Part shown: positions 11,175 through 22,898 of the stretch, piece by piece
How the letters are laid out: the number at the start of each line of letters is the position of its first letter
How positions within the stretch are numbered: position 1 is the stretch's first letter
Assembly: GCA_000092065.1 (NCBI GenBank)
Contig: CP000585.1
Origin: Ostreococcus lucimarinus
Taxonomy: Eukaryota
Reading direction: 5' to 3' (one strand)
DNA length: 64,000 bases
Translations under genes and position numbers: made by a program
The notes under the pieces: generated by a model
Told to the model about the DNA's origin: nothing
Database searches by the model: none
What the model saw: the letters and a program-made list of their open reading frames with translations, nothing else

Positions 11175-13085
11175 TTACTCGTCGTCATCCGTGAACGAGA
11201 CGGCGGATTCGGCGTCGGAATAGCTCGCTAGGTATGACGCTTCGTCGCGATCGGGCGCGGTGGGACGAGACCGACGCTTGGCGTCTCGAGAGGCGACGAT
11301 CGCGCGTCTGGTGGATTCGAGCGCGCGTCTGTTTTCGGCGCTCAAGCCGTCGTACGCTGTTTCTCCGGCGGCGTTCGTGACACGCTCGTCGGCGCCTTTG
11401 CTAACCAGATACTCGCCGAGCTCGAAGTACCCGTAACCGTAGCAATAGTGCAACGCGGTGTTGCCTTGCTTGTTTCGAGCGTCGAGCGGGACGCCGGCGC
11501 GAACGCACATCTTGGTGACGCGCTTGCGGTTGTTTTGCGCAGCGACGATGAGAACGGTGTTTCCGAACGAATCTCGCGTGTCGACGTCAAATTCGGTGCT
11601 ATTGTGCACAAGGATTTCTTGTGCTTCGCTTACGCGCCCGTTACGAACGGCGCTGAAGATGGGATGCTGAACGCCGTTCTCTCTGAGCGTCTTTGGGGCA
11701 TCTTTCTCGATCGACGTCTTGGAAGACGCTTCCTCGGGAATGATCAACTTTGCGGGAGAAAACTTTTTGTACGTCGGAGACACAGAATCTGGTCCAACCG
11801 GGGACCCGAGATTCGTGTCTCGTCGCGCTGGCTCGGGCGAACGCAGCCACTCGGGCAAATCTCTGTCGTCGAGCGTCGTCCGCGCCGGGCTCGGCGAGCT
11901 CTCCGCTGGACTCTGCGCCGCCACCGACGAGTACTTACGCTCCGTTGCCTTCTCTTCCTTGGACCACATCTCGTAGTCTTTCTTCGTGTCCTTTAATTCG
12001 TCCGCGAGCGAGCGCACGCGCGCCTCGCTCGCGTCTCGAGCTCGACGCAGCGCGTTTATTTGCTCAATCATCGCGCGCTCTTTTTCGGTGAACTGCTTCG
12101 TCGTCTTTCGCATTCGACCGAGCTCCGTCTTCAACCCCGCTTCGCCGACGTCGCTCAAATCACCCTCTGGCGCCGCCGTGGCGTTCGTGGACGAATCCTG
12201 CCGCCTCTGCGATTGCGAGACGTTTAGCAATCGCTTTTCCTCAATCTGCAACTCGGCCAACCGACGCTCCGCCTCCGTCTCCTTATCCGCGGCGAGCCGC
12301 TCGCGCTCGGCGATTCGATTTTCCCTCTCGACGAGCGATCTTTCGCGCGCACGCAGCGCGTCTTCTTCCGAACGCAACCTAATTTCAAGCTCGCGCACCT
12401 CGCGTTCCATTCGCGCCCGGTCGAGCGCGACGCGTTCCCGCTCGCTCGAATCCGCGTCCTCTCCTTCGGCGACGCGCGTCGCCGTCACCACCGGCTCGAC
12501 CACCGCTTCGACCGCGCGCGACGTCGACGCGAACGTTTCCGCGCCCTCGCGCGCCGCCTCGTCGTCTAAATCCTCCAAAGTCCGCGTCTCCTCGTCCCCC
12601 GCGCTCGCGAAACAAAAGCAACGCGCCGCCGCCGACGCCCTCCGACCCGTCGCCACCGTCGCCACCGACGTCTCCCGTCGCGCGCGCGTCGCCGCCTCCT
12701 CGCGCGTCGTCTCGTTCGCCCTCGCCTTTTCGCGCGCGTCCGTCGCGTCCGCCCTCCCTTCCGTCCCGTTCGCCGTCTCGCCTCGTCGTCGTCCTCGCGC
12801 GTCGTCGTCCCGCGCGCCCGCCTCGCGCCTCCCTCCCGCGCCTTTCGCCGTCTCCCTCGCCCGTCGCGACTCCGCCCGCGCGCGCGCCATCGCCCGCCAC
12901 CCCTCGTCGCCCTCGCGCCGCCGCGCGTCGACGCCTCGCGCCTCCGCGCGTCGTCGCGCGCGCGCGTTCGCGTCCTCCGTCGCCGCGCGTCCCGCGTCCC
13001 GCCGCGTCTCTTCCCTCGCTCCGCGTCCCGCGCGGTGTCGCGCCATCGCGCGTCGAAGCGCCTCCGAGCGCTCGCGCGACGCCAT
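11175..13085 (-). CDS. Coiled-coil protein with C-terminal ankyrin repeats
   Basis: C-terminal ANK units: GNTVLIVAAQNNRKRVTKMCVRAGVPLDARNKQGNTALHYCYGYGYFELGEYLVSKGADERVTNAAGETA. The middle region has long heptad-like E/R-rich helices. The track start at 13193 is TTG and lies inside the tandem repeat. The first ATG is at 13085. Confidence 0.7.
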   Translation of the reverse strand: MASRERSEALRRAMARHRAGRGAREETRRDAGRAATEDANARARRRAEARGVDARRREGDEGWRAMARARAESRRARETAKGAGGRREAGARDDDARGRRRGETANGTEGRADATDAREKARANETTREEAATRARRETSVATVATGRRASAAARCFCFASAGDEETRTLEDLDDEAAREGAETFASTSRAVEAVVEPVVTATRVAEGEDADSSERERVALDRARMEREVRELEIRLRSEEDALRARERSLVERENRIAERERLAADKETEAERRLAELQIEEKRLLNVSQSQRRQDSSTNATAAPEGDLSDVGEAGLKTELGRMRKTTKQFTEKERAMIEQINALRRARDASEARVRSLADELKDTKKDYEMWSKEEKATERKYSSVAAQSPAESSPSPARTTLDDRDLPEWLRSPEPARRDTNLGSPVGPDSVSPTYKKFSPAKLIIPEEASSKTSIEKDAPKTLRENGVQHPIFSAVRNGRVSEAQEILVHNSTEFDVDTRDSFGNTVLIVAAQNNRKRVTKMCVRAGVPLDARNKQGNTALHYCYGYGYFELGEYLVSKGADERVTNAAGETAYDGLSAENRRALESTRRAIVASRDAKRRSRPTAPDRDEASYLASYSDAESAVSFTDDDE

Positions 13086-13116
<31 letters not shown>

Positions 13117-13159
13117 ACGACGCGCGGCGACGGCGCGTCGCGCGATGCCGCGCGACGGA

Positions 13160-13440
13160 TCGTCGTCGTCGCGAATCCTGTCTGATCCCTCAAACATCTC
13201 TTTAAATGCGTTGAATCGTTCGTACTTTAACATGGCGCACGTGGAGGCGCGTGCTGCCGTCGTCGCGAATCCTGTCTGATCCCTCAAACGTCTCTTAGAA
13301 TGCGTTGAATCGTTCGTACTTTAACATGGCGCACGCGGAGGCGCGCGATGCCGTCGTCGCGAATCCCGTCTGATCCCTCGAACATCTCTTGAAATGCGTT
13401 GAATCGTTCGTACTTTAACATGGCGCACGTGTAGGAGCGT
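13160..13440. repeat. Minisatellite: 94-bp unit x3 (period measured as 13171 to 13265 to 13359)
   Basis: Three near-identical copies of ...cgtcgtcgcgaatcctgtctgatccctcaaacatctctt(t/a/g)aa(a)tgcgttgaatcgttcgtactttaacatggcgcacgtggaggcgcgtg.... The array sits in the divergent spacer between the ankyrin/CC gene (ATG 13085, minus) and the GATA gene (ATG 13545, plus). Confidence 0.9.
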
Positions 13441-13544
13441 GGATATTTTCGTCGTCCGACGTCGTGGTCGGTCGGACGGGCGATCGCGCGGGATCGCGAT
13501 CGCGCGCGGCGCGGGGAGTTCGGCGCGCGCGAACGCGGCGCGCG

Positions 13545-14396
13545 ATGATCGTCTCGCGGCGCGCGCGAGCGGACGACGGCGGGCGCGCGGCGCGCGACGC
13601 GAGCGCGCGCGACGGGGGGAGTTCGGCGACGGGGATCCTGAGCGGCGCGGAGATCGCGACGCTGAGCGAGCACTCGTACGATCGCTTGCTGCGGTTGAAA
13701 CCGCGAGAGATCGGACGAGGGGATCGGTTGACGGCGGAGGAGACGGCGGTGACGTTCGATACGTTCGGGCCGGCGAGCGTGTCGGTGGACATCGTGAGCG
13801 TGGAGAGGGACGAGGGAGGGACGGGGGAGGGACGAGGGCGAGGGACGGCGGACGCGTTTGAGTTTTTTGAAAAGCGGGCGTTTTTGAAGGAGAGTTCGAA
13901 GAGGAACGCGATGGATTTGGCGCGGTTGCGACGGACGCGGATCGCGGACGAGCGCGCGAAGGTGCGGGAACGAGAGCGGGAGCGCGCGGCGAGCGCGCGA
14001 CCGCCGGGAGGACCGGGCGCGAACGGAGCGCCGCCAGAGGTTCGAAGGAAGAAGAGAGGTCGAGGACGGCCGCGAAAGGATGCCGTTAACGCCGCGTCGC
14101 GCCAGCGCGACGCGCGCGGGCGAAAACGGATGTACGACCGATCGACGGAGACGTGCGCGGAGTGCGGGACGCACCAGACGCCGCAGTGGCGAAGTCTTTC
14201 GGCGCAGTTCGCCGTGCTCGAGCGCGCGGGCATGCTCAACGCCGTCGTGTGTAACAGGTGTTACGCCCGCGCGAAGCGCAGAAGCCAACGTCTGGCTCAC
14301 CCTCAAACGACCACGTCGCTCGAGAAGGTCGACGGCGCGTCCGCGCCCGCCGACGCCGACGCCCTCGGCGCTCTGTGCGCCGCCGTCGACCTGTGA
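13545..14396 (+). CDS. GATA-type zinc-finger transcription factor with AT-hook
   Basis: CAECGTHQTPQWRSLSAQFAVLERAGMLNAVVCNRCYARAKRR matches the C-x2-C...TPxWR...CNxC GATA finger but with a 28-residue loop. There is an AT-hook (KKRGRGRPRK) upstream. The track start at 13464 is GTG. The first ATG at 13545 was verified. Confidence 0.65.
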   Translation: MIVSRRARADDGGRAARDASARDGGSSATGILSGAEIATLSEHSYDRLLRLKPREIGRGDRLTAEETAVTFDTFGPASVSVDIVSVERDEGGTGEGRGRGTADAFEFFEKRAFLKESSKRNAMDLARLRRTRIADERAKVRERERERAASARPPGGPGANGAPPEVRRKKRGRGRPRKDAVNAASRQRDARGRKRMYDRSTETCAECGTHQTPQWRSLSAQFAVLERAGMLNAVVCNRCYARAKRRSQRLAHPQTTTSLEKVDGASAPADADALGALCAAVDL

Positions 14397-14584
14397 CCGC
14401 GCGCGCGCGCGCTCTGTACGAATACCGCTCGCTTTGTTGAGTCGAATCGTAAATTCGCTCTTTGTTGTTCTTTTGTTTTGTATTGTAGAGAACGCTTCAC
14501 GTCGTGTACGGCTCCGCGTCGTCTCGTCGCGCCCGAGCAACGAACTCGGTCGCGAACGCGCCAGACGCCGCCCGCGCGCGCGCG

Positions 14585-15373
14585 ATGGCGTCGCCGCCCG
14601 GAGGGCTATCGGGCGTCCGCGCGACGCTCGAGCGCGCGCGCGCGATGCTCCACGACGCCGTGCGTCGCGCGCGCGCGGGGAAACGCGACGCGACGGCGGT
14701 CGAGGCGGCGACGGCGAACGAGGCGCGACGACGCGACGCGGACGCGCGCGCGACGACGACGACGGGACGACGCGCGGACGGCTCGCCGTCACCGCCGAAG
14801 ACACCGACGGAATCGACGGAGAAGCGCGCGAAGAGGTCGTCGCCGACGTCGTCGCCCGAGGAGGCGCGCGAAGAGGCGGCGGCGGGACGCGCGAAGCGGA
14901 CGAAGCGGCCGCCGCCCGAACGCGGTGGAGCCGTGCGCGCACCGCTCGAACGCGACGAACCCGCGCGTGGTGTGTATTTCAACTCTTCGTCGTTTACGAT
15001 GATGTCTGCGACGCCAGAGGTGGATTCAGACGACGATGGAGCTCGACGGGAAATCGACGAGAGCGCGCGGTTGATTCACGAATTTACAGACCTCGCCGAG
15101 GAGGAGCTCCAATACATGGTCAAGTGGAATTCCATCGCGCTGAGGTTTCGGTGCTTGGGACGTCACGAAAGCCCGGCGCTGTGTGAGGCATTCGCTAGAA
15201 CGCACTGGCGCTCGCTGCGTGAGAAGGATTTCTTCTCGTATTATCTCAGAACCGTTCTGGCGATGTACGAATTCGGCGCAATCGACCGCGCGGGCGTCGT
15301 GCACGCCCTCAGGGTGGCCGCACATGTCACCGGACAAAAGCGCGTGGGTTGGAGGAGACATTCGATTCATTAG
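14585..15373 (+). CDS. Hypothetical protein (262 aa) with a conserved-looking C-terminal half and no recognised domain
   Basis: The track start at 14504 is GTG, so I used the first ATG at 14585. The C-terminus (EELQYMVKWNSIALRFRCLGRHESPALCEAFARTHWRSLREKDFFSYYLRTVLAMYEFGAI) is compositionally normal. The gene is convergent with Piezo and ends 45 bp from it. Confidence 0.35.
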   Translation: MASPPGGLSGVRATLERARAMLHDAVRRARAGKRDATAVEAATANEARRRDADARATTTTGRRADGSPSPPKTPTESTEKRAKRSSPTSSPEEAREEAAAGRAKRTKRPPPERGGAVRAPLERDEPARGVYFNSSSFTMMSATPEVDSDDDGARREIDESARLIHEFTDLAEEELQYMVKWNSIALRFRCLGRHESPALCEAFARTHWRSLREKDFFSYYLRTVLAMYEFGAIDRAGVVHALRVAAHVTGQKRVGWRRHSIH

Positions 15374-15418: not shown

Positions 15419-18400
15419 CTAAATTTCATCGGCGTTTCGACTGATGACTCTTCGCAGAGACGACTCACGCATCATCCTCATGAGGGAGTAGTACATCTTC
15501 ATTTCATCCCGTCGTCTTCCGGGATAATCTAACGACCGAATTAAACGCAAACCTCGACAGACGTTGATCAGCTCATCAGTGTTGGCGATTTCGTTCACGA
15601 AGACGTCGGAGAGTTTGAAATTGTACATCGTGCGAACAAAAAAGCCGACGGTGACGAAAACAAAGCCGTACAGCGCGCGAAGACTGTAGCTCGATAAGCC
15701 CAAGCTCGACACTAAACCGACGAGGTATCGATCGCTTATGGTGGCGTATAAAACCCCGTAATCTGAAGGCGGTAGCGTCGAGTCAATTCCACAGAAATCC
15801 GGCGCAGCGGTTGGGAAAGAGGGCGACGTCGGAGTCACTTCCCACAAATTCGCCGTCGGCGTCGATCCTAGCGTCATGTTTAAGCCGATGTACGCCGACG
15901 TGTTGAAATCCAAGATCTCGACCATGGTCTCAGGTGTGAGATGAAAGCCGCGCGGTATCACGTTTGCGAACTGGATACTCCCTTGACCGTTGGTGATGAC
16001 GCCGGCGAGCGCGGCGCAATGCGCGTTGGTGAGCGTCGCCACCAAGTCTTGCGAAACCGTCTTCGCCTTCAGCGGGCCGAGTCTAGTGAACTCCGTCGTG
16101 ATAGTCATCTTGGCCGTGCACGTGGATGCTGCTGCTGCTGTGTTGAGCGACTGTGCGAGAGCTAGTTTCGAACTTTGCGGCAAAATCCAAGCGCTTTGAG
16201 AATACTTTGGAAACCGCACGCAGTCGGAGTCAATGCTGCGAAAGGAAAGACCTCTGAGAAGTTCTGACTTCATTGCCTCTTGCGAGATCGAAGACATCCC
16301 GTAACCGGTCGCGAACCCAGAGTATATCCTGTGACGCTCCGTCTTTTCATCCGCGTAGAAGTCTAATTGCACCTGCATCGTCGCAGCTTCTATTCTGTTG
16401 CTCGTCAACGCCGGATTGAATGTGCTAAAGATGAAAATCGGCCCGGTGAGCAACAGCATGATGATGGCGATGATGCCGCCGCCGAGTAGAATCTTAAGGG
16501 GCCAAGGCACAGGTTTTGCTCCGCTGTAATACTGGCGTCTGTTCCGTCTCCACGAGATGAGCATGTCCGTTTTGTGCAACAGGTAGTAAAGCGTCTCGTA
16601 CCGGAACCACATGACGTAATCTATGCTCGTGTCGCACACGACCCAGTCCAAAAGAGTTCGTATTTCGAACAAGAATGGCAACGTGTTGATGAGGTTGTAC
16701 ACGAATCGTCCTACAGGGGTATTCCCGAAACGCATGAGGACGATTTTGAACTGATACCCCTCCCTAAAACCTTCTCGAAGTTGCAACGCGCTGACGATGA
16801 ATTGGAAGAGCATCAAAACCGTAAACGCCTTGAGATGCGAGTTATGTCGCGGAGACACGAATGAACGCGTGTCCAGTAACGGAAGGAAAATGAAAACCAG
16901 TGAGACGTATAGCACGACTTGTGCAAAGTGCAAGTAGAACTTCAACTTGATGTTCTGCGAAAGATACACCAAGCGCATCACAATTATCCACATCACAGAC
17001 GACACGATGGAAATCGTCAGTCCCGTTCCAAAGGACTCCGTCGAACTCAGCGCCGTGCCAGACTCGAAGACTAAGTTACGGTAACCCGTGACAAACCAAC
17101 AAGTAATGATTAATTGTAAGAAAATCTCCAAGGAGTAAAGGTCGACGCCCGGTTTGCCGACATTCCTTTTCGGCATTTTGGCGGAATTGCTAAGACAAAT
17201 CTGCGTCACCAATTCTCTGAAACGAGTTTGTGCAACGTGTATACCCCTAGTGAAGAGGCCGAACGTCCTCATATACGCCCTTCTCCGTTCACGTCGTCTC
17301 AAAGCACGAGTGCGTTCCTTACTAGTGCGTCCTTCTAGATGGTGCGTCTCGACTTGCCGTGTTTTTCCTGTCGCGACATCCTCAAGCGGCGGCGACGTCA
17401 ACGCCGCCAAGTCGATGTCGTCCTTGAATTCACCAGCATGGTACGTCTGATAATCTTCTCGAGGAGCTAGCGGGATGGCATCGCGCCTCGTGCATTGACC
17501 CAAACTATGCATGTGTGACATGTGTAAGACGAGCGTGACAATGAGAAATATGTCTGTCCAGACTTCATCGCGAACCAAATTTCGAGCGCGTGGGACGGTG
17601 AGAAGAGTCGCACTCAACGTGCTAAACTCACTGTCCGCGGCCGGGTCATACAACGTCATCGTCGGACAATACGGTTGCGCACTGATGTACCACTTGTTGC
17701 GGTTGTCAAACTTTGCGTTCGCATCAAGTTCCATGCAGAACGCCTTGCTTCGGAGCAAAATCCGTGCGTAAAAGCACGCGACGGAATACCAGAAGATGAA
17801 ACGCCACATCTCCGGCAGTGGCTGCGGATTCCACATCGCCGCGAACGCCAAAATGAAGATCACGAGACATGCACTCATCAAATCGACGTGATCGATGAAG
17901 TTACACACCAAAGCGATGTACAACAAGCGCTCGCTTTGAGAATAGATGATCTTTCCGAAGCCGGTAATGATATTCGCGCCGCCCCAGTCTCCTTTTCGAG
18001 TCCACTCGCTTTCGCCGCCTTTGTCGTTGGGCAACGGATATAGCGCGGGATCGAGCAAGTAAGCGGCAGAATTTCTCGCAGCGTGGACAACCTTGGCAAC
18101 GCCATTTATCAACTTGTCTTTGCCCGATAAAACCTCTTCACCTTCCTCGTCGTCTTGCGGCATTGGCATGGTGACGACGTCGGATGGCTCTGACGGAGGT
18201 CCGTAACCAATCGACCTTGAACACGATTGCACGGTGAAGGAGTAGCTCATACCCGGAGTTAGACCAGAGATCACATGTGATGACGGTGCCCGTGACTCTG
18301 CATCAACGTCCACTTTCACTGGGTTCACGTGATGTGGAAATATCGTTGTCCGCGGCGAACGCTCGCGCTTTATAGTGAATTGTTCGATGTCGTCAGTCGA

Positions 18401-21400
18401 GCCGCGCATCTTCCACTTCACCTCGACGGTGGTTGAGTTTTGTGCCCGCACAGTGACATGTTCAGGAACATATTTTTCCGCCGCCGTCTCTTCGTCGATT
18501 GTGTGCCTGAACTTTTGGAAATGAGTCCATTCAGACGCTTGCAAGGCGCTCGCTCGAACTTTGTCGGTGATCATTTTGTACTCTTCATCAATCTCCTGTT
18601 GAATCTTTGCTCGCCATCCAAGAATGTATTTGCGATACAAGATGGAACGGCGAGCACGCTTGTCCATTGCGTTTTTTTCTAATCGCAAGACTTCACGGAC
18701 GTATCGTTCGTTGGAGAAAAGTTGCGCTTGAACCGAGCAAAGAATGAATAGCGCGACGTCGACGCCTATGGAACCAGAGCTGTAACCCAACACAGACACA
18801 CAGTCTGCAGCGAGCATGGTAGCGTCACACGCCGAGCCGAGTTTACGGACACCGAACAAGGAGTTAATTGTTTCGCACATGCGCGTACCCACAACACATG
18901 ACCCAAGTCGCGCAGTGCGACCATTGAGAAGTATCGGCTTGATATAGGGGATCTGATACACAAGTTTCGCCGCGAGGACGGTGAAGACGTACACGGGCAA
19001 GAGACGGAACAACTCGCCATTCCACCATTTGTGGGCGCGACTCGGGAATATTCGAGTGTTTATTCGCAACTCATTGAAGCGCATCGAAAACAAAATCGTG
19101 ATTCCCGCATAGCACAGTGATATGAAATCACTATCGTGCTGCGCCACGGCAGCCGTCGTAGTGAGAATAACGATGACCAAAAGTAGATACTTGTAGAAGA
19201 ACTTCAAGAAGAATTGACCCATGATCTCTTCAATTCTCCGTCGCACAGTCGTTCGTCGCTCGTGAATCGCCATCGAAGCGATTTGGCTGAAAGTGTAGTG
19301 CTCTTGAATGACTTGCAATTCTTCCTTAATTGAAACTTGCCTCGATAGATTTCGATTCGTCCAATTGGCGCGCTTCATTTCTTCCCTTTGAAGGTCTGCG
19401 TCCACGCTCGGAACGTACTCTTGGAGTTGCACGTTTACCGCGTCCCATCGCTTTATTTTGTCATCGTAGGAAAGTTCTGATGTTTCATCGAGCTTGCGCC
19501 GTTCTGCGAGGCGAGTATTGACTTTGTTTGCGAGAGATGTAAACGCCTCTGACTGCACCCACTCGCTACCCATCTTTTGGCCTTTCGCTTTCACGTAGCC
19601 GCGCATCCATGCCGTGCGGACGTCGTCCCGAACCATGTTTTTGTGTCCTTTTCGCACGTAATGTCCCACGAGTAACATCACGAGGATGTCAGATATTATT
19701 TCGTACTCATGTACAAAAACTGGCCTCGAGTTGCAATCCAAATACGCTGACGGCGCAGGCGCTGCGGCAGCGGAGGACGGACAGTCCCAAATATCGAGCC
19801 AAAACCGTTTTTCAGGGCACGTCTCACAGTAATTTGTATTGAGCCAACTCGGCGGCAGGCGCAAGGCGGCCATGATGTGTATCGCCAAGATGGCGCCGAT
19901 GATGAGAAGTATTGCGTAACCTTGAGACTGAAATCTCACAACTCCTGCGCGATTGTTGAAGGCCAAAAAGTATCCAAGGATGATGATATATATAGAACTC
20001 GTCACATCTGATTTTAAGAAGGCATTGATCAGTAACACGGCCATCGCGAGCAGATACTTCAAGCTCGCGAGCTGCTCAATCGCGGAATCTAGTGTCTCGA
20101 AGGTATTCTTGACATCCCACTTCACGAATCGATAAACCATCCTTATGACGATTGGGCGCCATCCGTACAGTGCGATTTTACTTTTGCTATGCTTCAAACT
20201 CCCGGCATTCACCTGTTTGACGAGATTGGCGAATATATCTTCTTCTGCGCGAATCGGCGTCTGCTGCACCATGGGGGACATGCCTTCATCCGTCGTGACG
20301 ATTTTCTTCTTGCCCACTGGCGTTTCGATGTTTTTGTTTTTCATGCGCTCGGCGACGATGAGCAATTTCAACTTCTTTGCCACATCGCATCCCTGAACTT
20401 CACCGCGAAGCTTTGCCCAATAACTCGCTCGCGGAACTGCGGTCGCCGTCGTCGATTTTGCTTTCCGTTGCACCTTGACATTGTGTCGTCTCTGCAAGAA
20501 TCCGTGTAAAACGGCGAAAATGATCACCGCATAATGCGCTCCAAAAATGTACCAGTTTGTCGTAAAAGTCAAGCACGCTTGCGTCGGGAACTGGTTTGAT
20601 GATGACGCCGCAACACTAGCATCCTGACAAAATGTCTTGGTGGAATCGAGAACGTAAGGCCACGCACAACAACTCGTGGTGGTTTGCAAGTCATCGCCGA
20701 GACGTGGATCGTAAAGTGAAATCAAGCCAAGCCAACTCCCCCAATTTTCGTTTACTAACGTGTTCAGCGATCCCGATTGGAAGATCGTCAAGAGCGTGAG
20801 CTGTTTGAACACGATGGAAATCGTCGCCAGTAGAGCCAAATAAAATCCGTAGTCATTCACCTCAGTGTGAATTGATACTGGCGCGGCATGATGATAGTCT
20901 GATTCCCTCAGGTGACGCCTGAACCACCCAGACGATCCAGATGGACTGCGCCTTGTCTGAATCGGCGGCGGCGTTATGTCGGCGGCCGTGATAACATTGC
21001 TTCGTATCCGACGCATTCGGTTCAAGAATCGCCATGAATCCGTCAAAATTCTCATCGACGTTCCAATGACGCTAAAAGTTCCATACCGAAGCGGTACGGG
21101 AGCCTTGCCGCGGATTGTTGGCACAGCGAGTTCTATGCATGCAAACATTATAACCACGACGTAGAGCATACTCACGACTTCGACTCGAAACGCCACACAG
21201 ATTGTTGCCACGAGTAAAAGCAGCTCCATGGATACGCCGTGTAACGCGGATTCGAATTCATCACCTACCGAGTCTTTCACGTGCTTTAATACCGTAGCGG
21301 TAGCGTGATACAGAAAGATAGACGGACGCATGGTGTTGATGTCCTCGACCTTCGTCGACTCGGATTCCTTACTCATATCGAGACGACGAATCGGTGTTCC

Positions 21401-22777
21401 CTCAGGCAGCCCATCTTCGTACCAGTCACTGTCGTAATCTTCACTATCGCGCTGCAAACGCTCGTTAAGCCAGTAATACAACATCACGCACATGACCAGT
21501 GTAAGGTAACGCGGCCACATGTACTTCCAAGAAAGGAGCGCCGGCGTCTGCAGTAAACCAAAGTCGAGCGGGGTGAGCTGTCGACTCAAACTACTCGGCC
21601 ACGCGTCCATGAGACTACCGGCGACCTCTGGTATGTTATAGACGTACAAAAGCGAGATGTACACGTACTGAAATGCGATATAATACCAAAGCGTATTTCG
21701 CAAACGCACCAGCCACTTATCTTGGAACTTCTTGGCGTCAACATCGGCGCCTCTCGTACCACTGAGGTTTCTCGCTGACGCCAGCATTCGCAAAATGGTC
21801 ACCAAAACTGTGACTATGTCCACAACTTGAATCATACTCATGGGCAATCCTCCAACGGTTGCTAAACCAGTGAACGTGATTGCGGCGGCTAAGATTGGAG
21901 CGTAGAGCAAAGGTCGATACCCTCCCACGCGGACTCTGAATCCCATCAGCTCTTGAAACTTGAATGAACTATCTATATCGCCGTGTGACACAGCCAAGGC
22001 GAAGCATGCGTTGGCCAACAGAGCGAAAATGAACCCAACAGTTTGCGCCGGTTTCATGCAACAAAGCCGTCCATTCCTACCCAAGGTCCAAAAGCCAAAG
22101 ATGTTTGCGACTTTGGACGTTTCTAATTCCTGCGACGTCGCCCCGAGCGAAGTAAACACATACGACCCGAATATGATCAATCCCGTCAGGAATTGCATTT
22201 TACCCGTGGTTGAAATTGCGTGCTCAAGTCGCGTCAAACGTGACGTGCGTGGATCACCGCGCCCGCCGACGAAACGCGTGTGCACCGCGACGAAGAGGAG
22301 AAACTGCAACACTCCGTTTGCCGAGTATCCCACGACGCCGCAACAAATGAAACCGAGCAGACGCCACCATTTCTGTATCGTATTCCGCAAATCTTCCTCT
22401 GTCAGCCCGACGACGAACATCAAACCTCGTCGCAAGTACTTCGCAATCGCTGTGGTTCTTCTCGACCCGCCAGCCTCCAAATGAGCCAACTCTCGTCTCA
22501 ATTCGCCTCGCGCCCACAGCGACGTCAAAGCCACGAACGCATCCGGAATGAGCGAACGCGTGCCGACCGTCGCTTCATCGAACTTTTGCAACCCGAACAC
22601 TTCCAGCCATTTCGTTGGGACTCGTTCCGCCCCGATCGCGGCGTACGACGTTTGAAAAACGACCTGCACGAACAAAAATCCTCCGGCGACGAACGTCGTA
22701 AACGTCACCGCCTTTGTCGACCGTAACACCGCCCTCGCCACCGGTCGCGTCGACGCGCACAGCGCGAGGTAACACAT
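15419..22777 (-). CDS. PIEZO: Piezo-type mechanosensitive cation channel homolog (~2450 aa, intronless in this model)
   Basis: Anchor-domain PF(x2)E(x6)W motif: PFLFEIRTLLDW. The C-terminal block GFVFVTVGFFVRTMYNFKLSDVFVNEIANTDELINVCRGLRLIR aligns to the Piezo1 inner helix/CTD (IGKFVRGFFSEISHSIMFEELPCVDRILKLCQDIFLVR). There are dozens of TM segments across 2.4k residues, consistent with the Piezo blade architecture. The track start at 22795 is GTG. The first ATG is at 22777. The N-terminus could be spliced. Confidence 0.85.
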   Translation of the reverse strand: MCYLALCASTRPVARAVLRSTKAVTFTTFVAGGFLFVQVVFQTSYAAIGAERVPTKWLEVFGLQKFDEATVGTRSLIPDAFVALTSLWARGELRRELAHLEAGGSRRTTAIAKYLRRGLMFVVGLTEEDLRNTIQKWWRLLGFICCGVVGYSANGVLQFLLFVAVHTRFVGGRGDPRTSRLTRLEHAISTTGKMQFLTGLIIFGSYVFTSLGATSQELETSKVANIFGFWTLGRNGRLCCMKPAQTVGFIFALLANACFALAVSHGDIDSSFKFQELMGFRVRVGGYRPLLYAPILAAAITFTGLATVGGLPMSMIQVVDIVTVLVTILRMLASARNLSGTRGADVDAKKFQDKWLVRLRNTLWYYIAFQYVYISLLYVYNIPEVAGSLMDAWPSSLSRQLTPLDFGLLQTPALLSWKYMWPRYLTLVMCVMLYYWLNERLQRDSEDYDSDWYEDGLPEGTPIRRLDMSKESESTKVEDINTMRPSIFLYHATATVLKHVKDSVGDEFESALHGVSMELLLLVATICVAFRVEVVSMLYVVVIMFACIELAVPTIRGKAPVPLRYGTFSVIGTSMRILTDSWRFLNRMRRIRSNVITAADITPPPIQTRRSPSGSSGWFRRHLRESDYHHAAPVSIHTEVNDYGFYLALLATISIVFKQLTLLTIFQSGSLNTLVNENWGSWLGLISLYDPRLGDDLQTTTSCCAWPYVLDSTKTFCQDASVAASSSNQFPTQACLTFTTNWYIFGAHYAVIIFAVLHGFLQRRHNVKVQRKAKSTTATAVPRASYWAKLRGEVQGCDVAKKLKLLIVAERMKNKNIETPVGKKKIVTTDEGMSPMVQQTPIRAEEDIFANLVKQVNAGSLKHSKSKIALYGWRPIVIRMVYRFVKWDVKNTFETLDSAIEQLASLKYLLAMAVLLINAFLKSDVTSSIYIIILGYFLAFNNRAGVVRFQSQGYAILLIIGAILAIHIMAALRLPPSWLNTNYCETCPEKRFWLDIWDCPSSAAAAPAPSAYLDCNSRPVFVHEYEIISDILVMLLVGHYVRKGHKNMVRDDVRTAWMRGYVKAKGQKMGSEWVQSEAFTSLANKVNTRLAERRKLDETSELSYDDKIKRWDAVNVQLQEYVPSVDADLQREEMKRANWTNRNLSRQVSIKEELQVIQEHYTFSQIASMAIHERRTTVRRRIEEIMGQFFLKFFYKYLLLVIVILTTTAAVAQHDSDFISLCYAGITILFSMRFNELRINTRIFPSRAHKWWNGELFRLLPVYVFTVLAAKLVYQIPYIKPILLNGRTARLGSCVVGTRMCETINSLFGVRKLGSACDATMLAADCVSVLGYSSGSIGVDVALFILCSVQAQLFSNERYVREVLRLEKNAMDKRARRSILYRKYILGWRAKIQQEIDEEYKMITDKVRASALQASEWTHFQKFRHTIDEETAAEKYVPEHVTVRAQNSTTVEVKWKMRGSTDDIEQFTIKRERSPRTTIFPHHVNPVKVDVDAESRAPSSHVISGLTPGMSYSFTVQSCSRSIGYGPPSEPSDVVTMPMPQDDEEGEEVLSGKDKLINGVAKVVHAARNSAAYLLDPALYPLPNDKGGESEWTRKGDWGGANIITGFGKIIYSQSERLLYIALVCNFIDHVDLMSACLVIFILAFAAMWNPQPLPEMWRFIFWYSVACFYARILLRSKAFCMELDANAKFDNRNKWYISAQPYCPTMTLYDPAADSEFSTLSATLLTVPRARNLVRDEVWTDIFLIVTLVLHMSHMHSLGQCTRRDAIPLAPREDYQTYHAGEFKDDIDLAALTSPPLEDVATGKTRQVETHHLEGRTSKERTRALRRRERRRAYMRTFGLFTRGIHVAQTRFRELVTQICLSNSAKMPKRNVGKPGVDLYSLEIFLQLIITCWFVTGYRNLVFESGTALSSTESFGTGLTISIVSSVMWIIVMRLVYLSQNIKLKFYLHFAQVVLYVSLVFIFLPLLDTRSFVSPRHNSHLKAFTVLMLFQFIVSALQLREGFREGYQFKIVLMRFGNTPVGRFVYNLINTLPFLFEIRTLLDWVVCDTSIDYVMWFRYETLYYLLHKTDMLISWRRNRRQYYSGAKPVPWPLKILLGGGIIAIIMLLLTGPIFIFSTFNPALTSNRIEAATMQVQLDFYADEKTERHRIYSGFATGYGMSSISQEAMKSELLRGLSFRSIDSDCVRFPKYSQSAWILPQSSKLALAQSLNTAAAASTCTAKMTITTEFTRLGPLKAKTVSQDLVATLTNAHCAALAGVITNGQGSIQFANVIPRGFHLTPETMVEILDFNTSAYIGLNMTLGSTPTANLWEVTPTSPSFPTAAPDFCGIDSTLPPSDYGVLYATISDRYLVGLVSSLGLSSYSLRALYGFVFVTVGFFVRTMYNFKLSDVFVNEIANTDELINVCRGLRLIRSLDYPGRRRDEMKMYYSLMRMMRESSLRRVISRNADEI

Positions 22778-22846
22778 AATGTAACAACACGACACCTACA
22801 TCGCGGCATCGCCATTCATCAGTCTTTCACTCTTCGCTCGCGAATT

Positions 22847-22898
22847 GTTCGCGTTCGCGTTCGCGTTCGCGTTCGCGTTCGCGTTCGCGTTCGCGTTC
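22847..22898. repeat. (GTTCGC)n microsatellite, ~9 units, ~70 bp upstream of the Piezo ATG
   Basis: Direct reading: gttcgcgttcgcgttcgc..., in the likely 5'UTR/promoter. Confidence 0.85.

Follow-up and report, generated by a model that had tools for sequence, protein, structure and literature searches.

The window analyzed here is a stretch of 64,000 nt of Ostreococcus lucimarinus DNA (contig CP000585.1). In an earlier sequence-only reading, made without database searches, two divergent ATGs were placed at positions 13085 and 13545, and the present analysis agrees, with the former on the minus strand and the latter on the plus strand. The two genes therefore start less than 1 kb apart and in opposite directions, as in a bidirectional promoter, and the same head-to-head arrangement was observed in the sister lineages L003 and L004 and in L020–L022. 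The features of the locus are as follows.

11175–13085, minus strand: ankyrin-repeat gene, 636 aa from ATG 13085, with a Pfam Ank_2 match (E=1.4e-11) and a coiled-coil-looking middle region.
13085–13114: perfect (TCGCG)6 microsatellite that abuts the ankyrin ATG and is length-polymorphic (left spacer of 66, 71 or 76 nt among alleles).
13164–13257: repeat copy 1, on the ankyrin-gene side, with CACGTG at 13238–13243.
13211–13233: TTGAATCGTTCGTACTTTAACAT, the least variable block of the unit, present again at 13305–13327 and 13399–13421 and also in the single unit of L003.
13258–13351: repeat copy 2, 94% identical to copy 1, with CACGCG at the G-box position.
13352–13445: repeat copy 3, on the GATA-gene side, 90% identical to copy 1, with CACGTG at 13426–13431.
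13468–13475: TCGGTCGG, target site of a 972-bp insertion in one natural allele (L035), where it forms an 8-bp perfect duplication.
13545–14396, plus strand: gene of a 283-aa GATA-type protein identical to XP_001417869.1 (O. lucimarinus CCE9901), on an 847,696-bp record.

In the alignment of ankyrin orthologues the N-terminal ~150 aa are poorly conserved. The orthologues begin no more than about 25 residues from the start at ATG 13085, and this start is therefore plausible. Within the N-terminal coding region, a low-complexity segment (12944–13028) is polymorphic for insertions and deletions, with 18 gapped columns and, in one 100-bp bin, a π of 0.015; it is unalignable to the sister lineages.

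The product of the plus-strand gene had been called a GATA factor. The family name is retained in UniRef ('GATA-type domain-containing'), but the Pfam GATA match of XP_001417869.1 reaches 18.7 bits against a curated cut-off of 26.8 and covers 14 of the 36 profile positions, and its zinc finger has an atypical CX2C-X27-CX2C spacing. On the same strand, 3′ of this open reading frame, lies a VEFS-box gene (Su(z)12/EMF2-type Polycomb; probable ATG at 14585, 262 aa). In a distant relative (L020:2450–4054) a single called product of 534 aa matches both VEFS-Box and GATA, in an order reversed relative to that of the window (13545–15373). The VEFS-box neighbor and the joint product of the distant relative suggest that the zinc-finger protein may be linked to chromatin rather than being a classical GATA factor. 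The idea that the GATA and VEFS-box reading frames form one spliced gene found no support: they are separated by an AT-rich gap of about 190 bp, the separate ATG at 14585 matches gene calls of 262 aa, and L020 has the two domains in the opposite order.

TRF detected one array at 13164–13441 (period 94, 3.0 copies, 91% matches, 0 indels, score 479). Five other entries of the window reached the score threshold of 95; these are low-complexity repeats, CG-rich or of short period, with a top score of 122. The sequence-only reading had described three head-to-tail copies, more than 90% identical, with nothing comparable in the window, and both statements hold: the period is 94, copies 2 and 3 share 94% and 90% identity with copy 1, and the array is by far the top tandem repeat. 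An 18-nt core occurs exactly three times in the window (0.02 expected), as does a 23-nt core (0.00 expected). A head-to-tail tandem unit of this length lies within the range of about 10–100 bp that defines a minisatellite or VNTR. The final bases of copy 3 merge into the unique sequence GGATATTTTCGTCGTCC, in which the CGTCGTC microhomology of the unit starts is found again.

Other details of that reading had to be corrected. The array was said to take up almost the whole 460-bp spacer, whereas it covers 278 of the 459 inter-ATG bases (61%). The GC content of the window is 60.4%, not 65%; that of the array is 53%, and its flanks reach 81% and 75%. CACGTG, which had been assigned to each unit, is present in copies 1 and 3 only, copy 2 carrying CACGCG. 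Finally, the supposed quasi-palindromic core, TTTAACATGGCGCACGTG, is on inspection palindromic in the CACGTG hexamer only, and no listed inverted repeat spans it.

Related loci were fetched from public assemblies through the orthologues of the ankyrin and GATA proteins. The choice of O. lucimarinus alleles by the near-identity of their GATA proteins makes the population sample narrower; their GATA coding sequences differ by 0–3 of 852 bases (6 in L015, a contig found by pattern). Most alleles come from short-read metagenome assemblies, in which tandem copies may collapse and co-occurring strains may be spliced, so that the count of one-copy alleles and the number of haplotypes given below could be inflated.

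Twenty-eight complete alleles span the spacer, and of these 10 carry one copy, 15 carry two and 3 carry three. The comparison of copy number between strains that had been proposed as a check thus revealed variation between 1, 2 and 3, as expected of a VNTR, with most of the alleles taken from metagenome assemblies. Two copies each, vs. three in the reference, were found in the long contigs of 100–837 kb (L007, L029, L033, L035 and L037). Another 14 contigs have Ns or break off within or next to the array. This is to be expected of a repeat, but assemblers evidently struggle at this site, and the assemblies call for caution.

The repeat varies in sequence as well as in number. The 28 complete alleles represent 24 distinct array haplotypes, and 45 distinct unit sequences were counted among the 65 copies of the loci found through proteins. 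Variant units are interspersed differently among alleles, and 59 of 190 biallelic site pairs show the four-gamete pattern within 95 bp. Nucleotide diversity (π) was 0.079 in the gene-proximal copies of the array, 0.059 in the first copies and 0.032 in the single-copy alleles; it was 0.0016 in the non-repeat spacer on either side of the array, 0.0012 in the GATA coding sequence, 0.0021 in the ankyrin 5′ coding sequence and 0.0057 in the next intergenic spacer. The excess is 30–50-fold and is confined to the repeat. For O. tauri, a synonymous π of 0.01 has been reported (PMC5498103).

Near 13180–13195, about a quarter of the natural copies (16–21 of 65, depending on the site) have five tightly linked changes in a span of 13 nt (GTCTGATCCCTCAAAC replaced by GGCTGATGGCGCGAAC). 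The cluster looks like the outcome of a single multi-base or templated event and not of independent point mutations. Deamination of CpG alone was rejected as the source of the variable sites, since CpG transitions make up about a third of the polymorphic columns (inspection of the column table).

To place the array in time, sister and distant lineages can be compared. L003, at 4.0% four-fold divergence, has one diverged unit that keeps ...GAATCGTTCGTGACTTTAACATCGGCGCACGTG; the presence of a single diverged unit in this lineage points to a single-copy ancestor. L004, at 8.2% four-fold divergence, lacks the unit and has an unrelated array (L004:2344–2533, 103 bp x1.9, score 262). The distant species L020 likewise has an unrelated 17–21/46-bp array in the orthologous spacer (L020:4424–4589). 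Both the unit and CACGTG are absent from the orthologous spacer of L004 and of four distant Ostreococcus lineages (L019–L022). Within O. lucimarinus, the alleles L016, L030 and L032 have a different junction, in which GGATATTTT abuts CGTCGCGAATCC, with a start-to-start spacing of 95–96 bp; this is an independent duplication via the same CGTCG microhomology.

In L035 the 972-bp insertion (L035:452–1423) separates the array from the GATA ATG. Its terminal inverted repeats match at 10 of 12 positions (TAGGGGTGCAGC and TAGGCCTGCAGC), it contains an internal repeat, CTGGTACGAG, of 4.8 copies, and it is absent from the window. By its sequence it looks like a non-autonomous DNA transposon of the hAT type. 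With the unrelated arrays of L004 and L020 and the transposon of L035 in the same spacer, the spacer emerges as a recurrent site of structural change.

The proposal that the array expanded recently survives in part. It fits the single diverged copy of L003; the copies, however, differ from each other by 6–10%, which exceeds the 4% four-fold divergence from L003, and a simple recent duplication is therefore insufficient. Either the duplication is older and L003 has lost copies, or the array evolves faster than synonymous sites.

In the metagenome records, viral contigs and window searched, the repeat unit is restricted to this locus. When 241 million metagenome records were scanned for exact matches to a 21–22-nt core, 4 contigs matched, all 4 of which carry a flank anchor of the window locus, and no viral contig (IMG/VR) matched the array core. 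Whether the unit is dispersed or forms a local array had been singled out as a point to check, and these searches, together with the three core copies in the window, show that it is local. A dispersed or transposon-derived repeat was accordingly rejected, as the metagenome, viral-contig and window searches did not place the unit at many unrelated sites. On inspection, neither terminal inverted repeats nor a target-site duplication were found around the array, whereas the insertion of L035 has both.

Candidate RNA and coding identities were also considered. At E<=10, Rfam gave no credible match to the array within 12800–13800 (one 17-bit chance match to a CRISPR-DR) and only chance miRNA-type matches in the GC-rich flank, and a tRNA search of the window with ARAGORN was negative. 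Folding of the copies as RNA, in either orientation, was no better than that of their shuffles (z of +0.2 to +2.7). A C/D snoRNA was rejected on inspection: each unit has one CTGA, no UGAUGA is conserved, and the would-be C box differs between copies. An upstream open reading frame from the ATG in AACATGGCG, which starts in every unit of the window (translated there as MAHVEARAAVVANPV*), was discarded because this ATG is ATC in 41 of the 65 natural copies. A unit of 94 bp is not a multiple of three, which rules against a coding repeat.

The sequence-only reading had offered selection, for example on arrayed transcription-factor sites, as the alternative to recent expansion. Upkeep of similar copies as E-box/G-box sites is not supported: the array is the most variable stretch of the locus (π of 0.06–0.08 vs. 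about 0.001–0.006), and a strict G-box array, with CACGTG in every unit, is contradicted both by copy 2 of the window and by the natural copies, 56 of 65 of which have the hexamer and 9 of which lack it. Across the window CACGTG is found 22 times (22.2 expected). It is kept in the spacer of L003, and it occurs in 35 of 37 gene-proximal copies vs. 21 of 28 upstream copies (Fisher P=0.03, with copies that are not independent). A block of 25 columns, CGTTGAATCGTTCGTACTTTAACAT, accounts for 8 of 307 minor-allele counts (permutation P=0.026; P=0.05–0.11 in the run-length version; P=0.03–0.11 over the range of versions). These patterns are weak hints of constraint on the gene-proximal CACGTG and on the block of about 25 nt. 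Together with the 10 of 28 alleles that have one unit, such marginal constraint leads us to read the proximal unit as the likely working module and the extra units as redundant.

The array is repeated, confined to one locus, polymorphic, derived from a single-copy state and devoid of the features of RNA genes or transposons. We consider it likely that it is a locus-specific 94-bp minisatellite (VNTR), young and shuffled by recombination, in a head-to-head promoter spacer of about 460 bp. It is an ordinary kind of element that is unusually variable, not a new kind. As a promoter VNTR it is probably near neutral or weakly modulatory.

A plausible course of events starts from one ancestral stretch of the promoter, with a GC content below that of its flanks, in which a block of about 25 nt would have been followed by a G-box-like CACGTG. 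This segment would have been duplicated in tandem by slippage or unequal exchange, with the junction at CGTCGTCG, a short direct repeat found on both sides of the unit. Copy numbers of 1, 2 or 3 would later have arisen as copies and alleles underwent unequal crossing-over, deletion and gene conversion among themselves, and the same processes would have shuffled the variant sites. This history would account for a polymorphism of the array far above that of the DNA around it. In the shared promoter, one or more working cis-elements probably reside in the gene-proximal unit. The additional units would be redundant copies under relaxed constraint that are not required, and at most they might alter the dose of sites and the spacing of the two gene starts, acting as a weak 'tuning knob' of expression.

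Four other explanations were weighed against a shuffled, near-neutral minisatellite. The variation in copy number and sequence might be mostly an assembly artefact, with the true array fixed at about three copies. Many contigs break within the array, the scaffold L023 has an N gap in it, and most alleles come from assemblies labeled metagenome or METAG or with MEGAHIT-style contig names, all of which would fit an artefact. Collapse, on the other hand, cannot create variant bases, and the copies differ enough for assembly at k=127–141 to resolve them; the 100–837 kb contigs consistently have two copies, of differing unit types; and different datasets gave identical arrays (L010/L026/L028, L006/L039 and L025/L041). 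The recovery of identical arrays from different datasets argues that the alleles are real, although chimeric assembly could still inflate the haplotype count, and we regard an artefact as very improbable. Even further from the evidence is the idea of tandem small-RNA genes, such as a snoRNA cluster, or of a fragment of a dispersed or mobile element. A unit of about 94 nt has a snoRNA-like length, each unit contains one CTGA, and the GC content of the array is below that of its flanks. Yet the array has no match to an Rfam family and no tRNA, neither strand out-folds its shuffles, the single CTGA per unit is accompanied by a candidate C box that differs among copies, and the unit is found at the window locus only; inspection revealed neither terminal inverted repeats nor a target-site duplication at the array, and the sole transposon is a separate insertion in one allele. 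An identity of this kind is extremely unlikely.

The array could instead be a selected set of transcription-factor sites, in which multiple G-box/E-box modules are needed for the proper or co-ordinated expression of both divergent genes. The prevalence of CACGTG (56 of 65 copies, 35 of 37 gene-proximal ones; P=0.03), the under-variable adjoining block of about 25 nt (P=0.026) and the retention of this block in L003 are consistent with such selection, and the unrelated arrays in the spacer of L004 and L020 could mean that repeated sites were selected repeatedly. Ten of the 28 complete alleles are nevertheless single-copy, so that multiple copies are not required. Moreover, no part of the locus varies more than the array, CACGTG is as frequent in the window as chance predicts, L004 (8% four-fold divergence) and four distant lineages have neither unit nor CACGTG in the spacer, and the statistics of constraint are marginal and in part post hoc, with copies that are not independent. 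Selection for multiple sites is therefore unlikely in our judgment. Somewhat more doubtful is that the spacer itself is a hotspot or contingency locus, with unusually frequent initiation of recombination or mutation, for example in open chromatin at a bidirectional promoter, and that the array is a by-product of this instability or a switch, born of it, that is exploited. In its favor are the 30–50-fold excess of diversity with sharp edges, the pervasive four-gamete violations within 95 bp, the divergence between copies in excess of that to the sister lineage, the three unrelated arrays in the same spacer of three lineages, the transposon insertion and the polymorphic (TCGCG)n in the same spacer, and the lack of a comparable array elsewhere in the 64 kb. 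In small repeat families, gene conversion that shuffles old paralogous differences raises diversity, as is established in the theory of duplicated genes, and this would produce the excess without a hotspot. The non-repeat spacer 1–100 nt from the array has a π of 0.0016, which speaks against a regional mutagenic effect, and recurrence is equally explained by the tolerance of a non-essential spacer to insertions. A bolder form would make the spacer a hypermutable or recombination-initiating 'contingency' promoter, in which fast gain, loss and conversion of repeats generate heritable diversity of expression within blooms, affecting the zinc-finger gene (chromatin-linked in this reading, with its VEFS-box neighbor), the ankyrin gene or both, through arrays recruited independently in three Ostreococcus lineages; this we hold to be speculative and quite improbable.

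The preferred reading, a recombination-shuffled minisatellite, has close parallels. Classical human minisatellites contain internal variant repeats and have been analyzed by variant-repeat mapping. Like such hypervariable minisatellites, the Ostreococcus array consists of head-to-tail units of tens of bases, its copy number differs between individuals, and it exists as many haplotypes of interspersed variant units with conversion-like shuffling. It differs from the human arrays in having 1–3 units rather than tens to hundreds, and its mutation process is read here from natural alleles. The host differs too: O. lucimarinus is a haploid picoalga with a 13-Mb genome and tiny intergenic regions. 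The genomes of Ostreococcus are among the most compact of eukaryotes, with very short intergenic regions and few repeats, so that a VNTR of 94 bp in a promoter, with 28 wild alleles falling into 24 haplotypes, stands out as a rare and sharply bounded island of variation.

The G-box CACGTG of plants is a cis-element bound by bZIP/bHLH factors. Most Ostreococcus units hold this hexamer, and the gene-proximal one is nearly fixed; unlike plant-type G-box elements, the hexamer is no commoner in the window than expected by chance, variable in the upstream copies and conserved no further than the closest sister lineage, and it is best described as a putative site. Polymorphic repeats in yeast promoters, which are AT-rich micro- and mini-repeats, modify expression. 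Tandem repeats of human promoters have been reported as expression QTLs (PMC4857002). The Ostreococcus array resembles the yeast and human promoter repeats in its location in the promoter region of two genes and in its natural copy-number variation. Compared with the yeast repeats its unit is much longer, and its effect on transcription is a putative one.

In O. tauri, the hypervariable small outlier chromosome (chromosome 19) has tandem duplications of 2.5-kb gene-containing units in 6–13 copies (PMC5498103). There, as here, tandem duplication is a source of strain-level variation in Ostreococcus; the O. lucimarinus unit differs in being 94 bp long, non-coding and located in an ordinary gene-dense region of 60% GC. 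We found nothing specific in the literature on an Ostreococcus minisatellite or a G-box at this locus, and nothing usable on linker methylation in O. lucimarinus. The array offers a ready-made marker of O. lucimarinus strains in cultures and metagenomes, and the natural series of one, two and three copies is a tractable test of the effect of promoter repeat number on two divergent genes. It would also illustrate how repeat-mediated conversion raises local diversity 30–50-fold.

Further along the window, a Piezo-like channel gene occupies 15419–22795 on the minus strand (2458 aa, fn3 domain present). At about 50%, it is lower in GC than the neighbor genes, which have 60–70%. About 50 bp upstream of the start of this reading frame, at 22847–22898, lies a perfect hexanucleotide repeat, (GTTCGC) x8.7.
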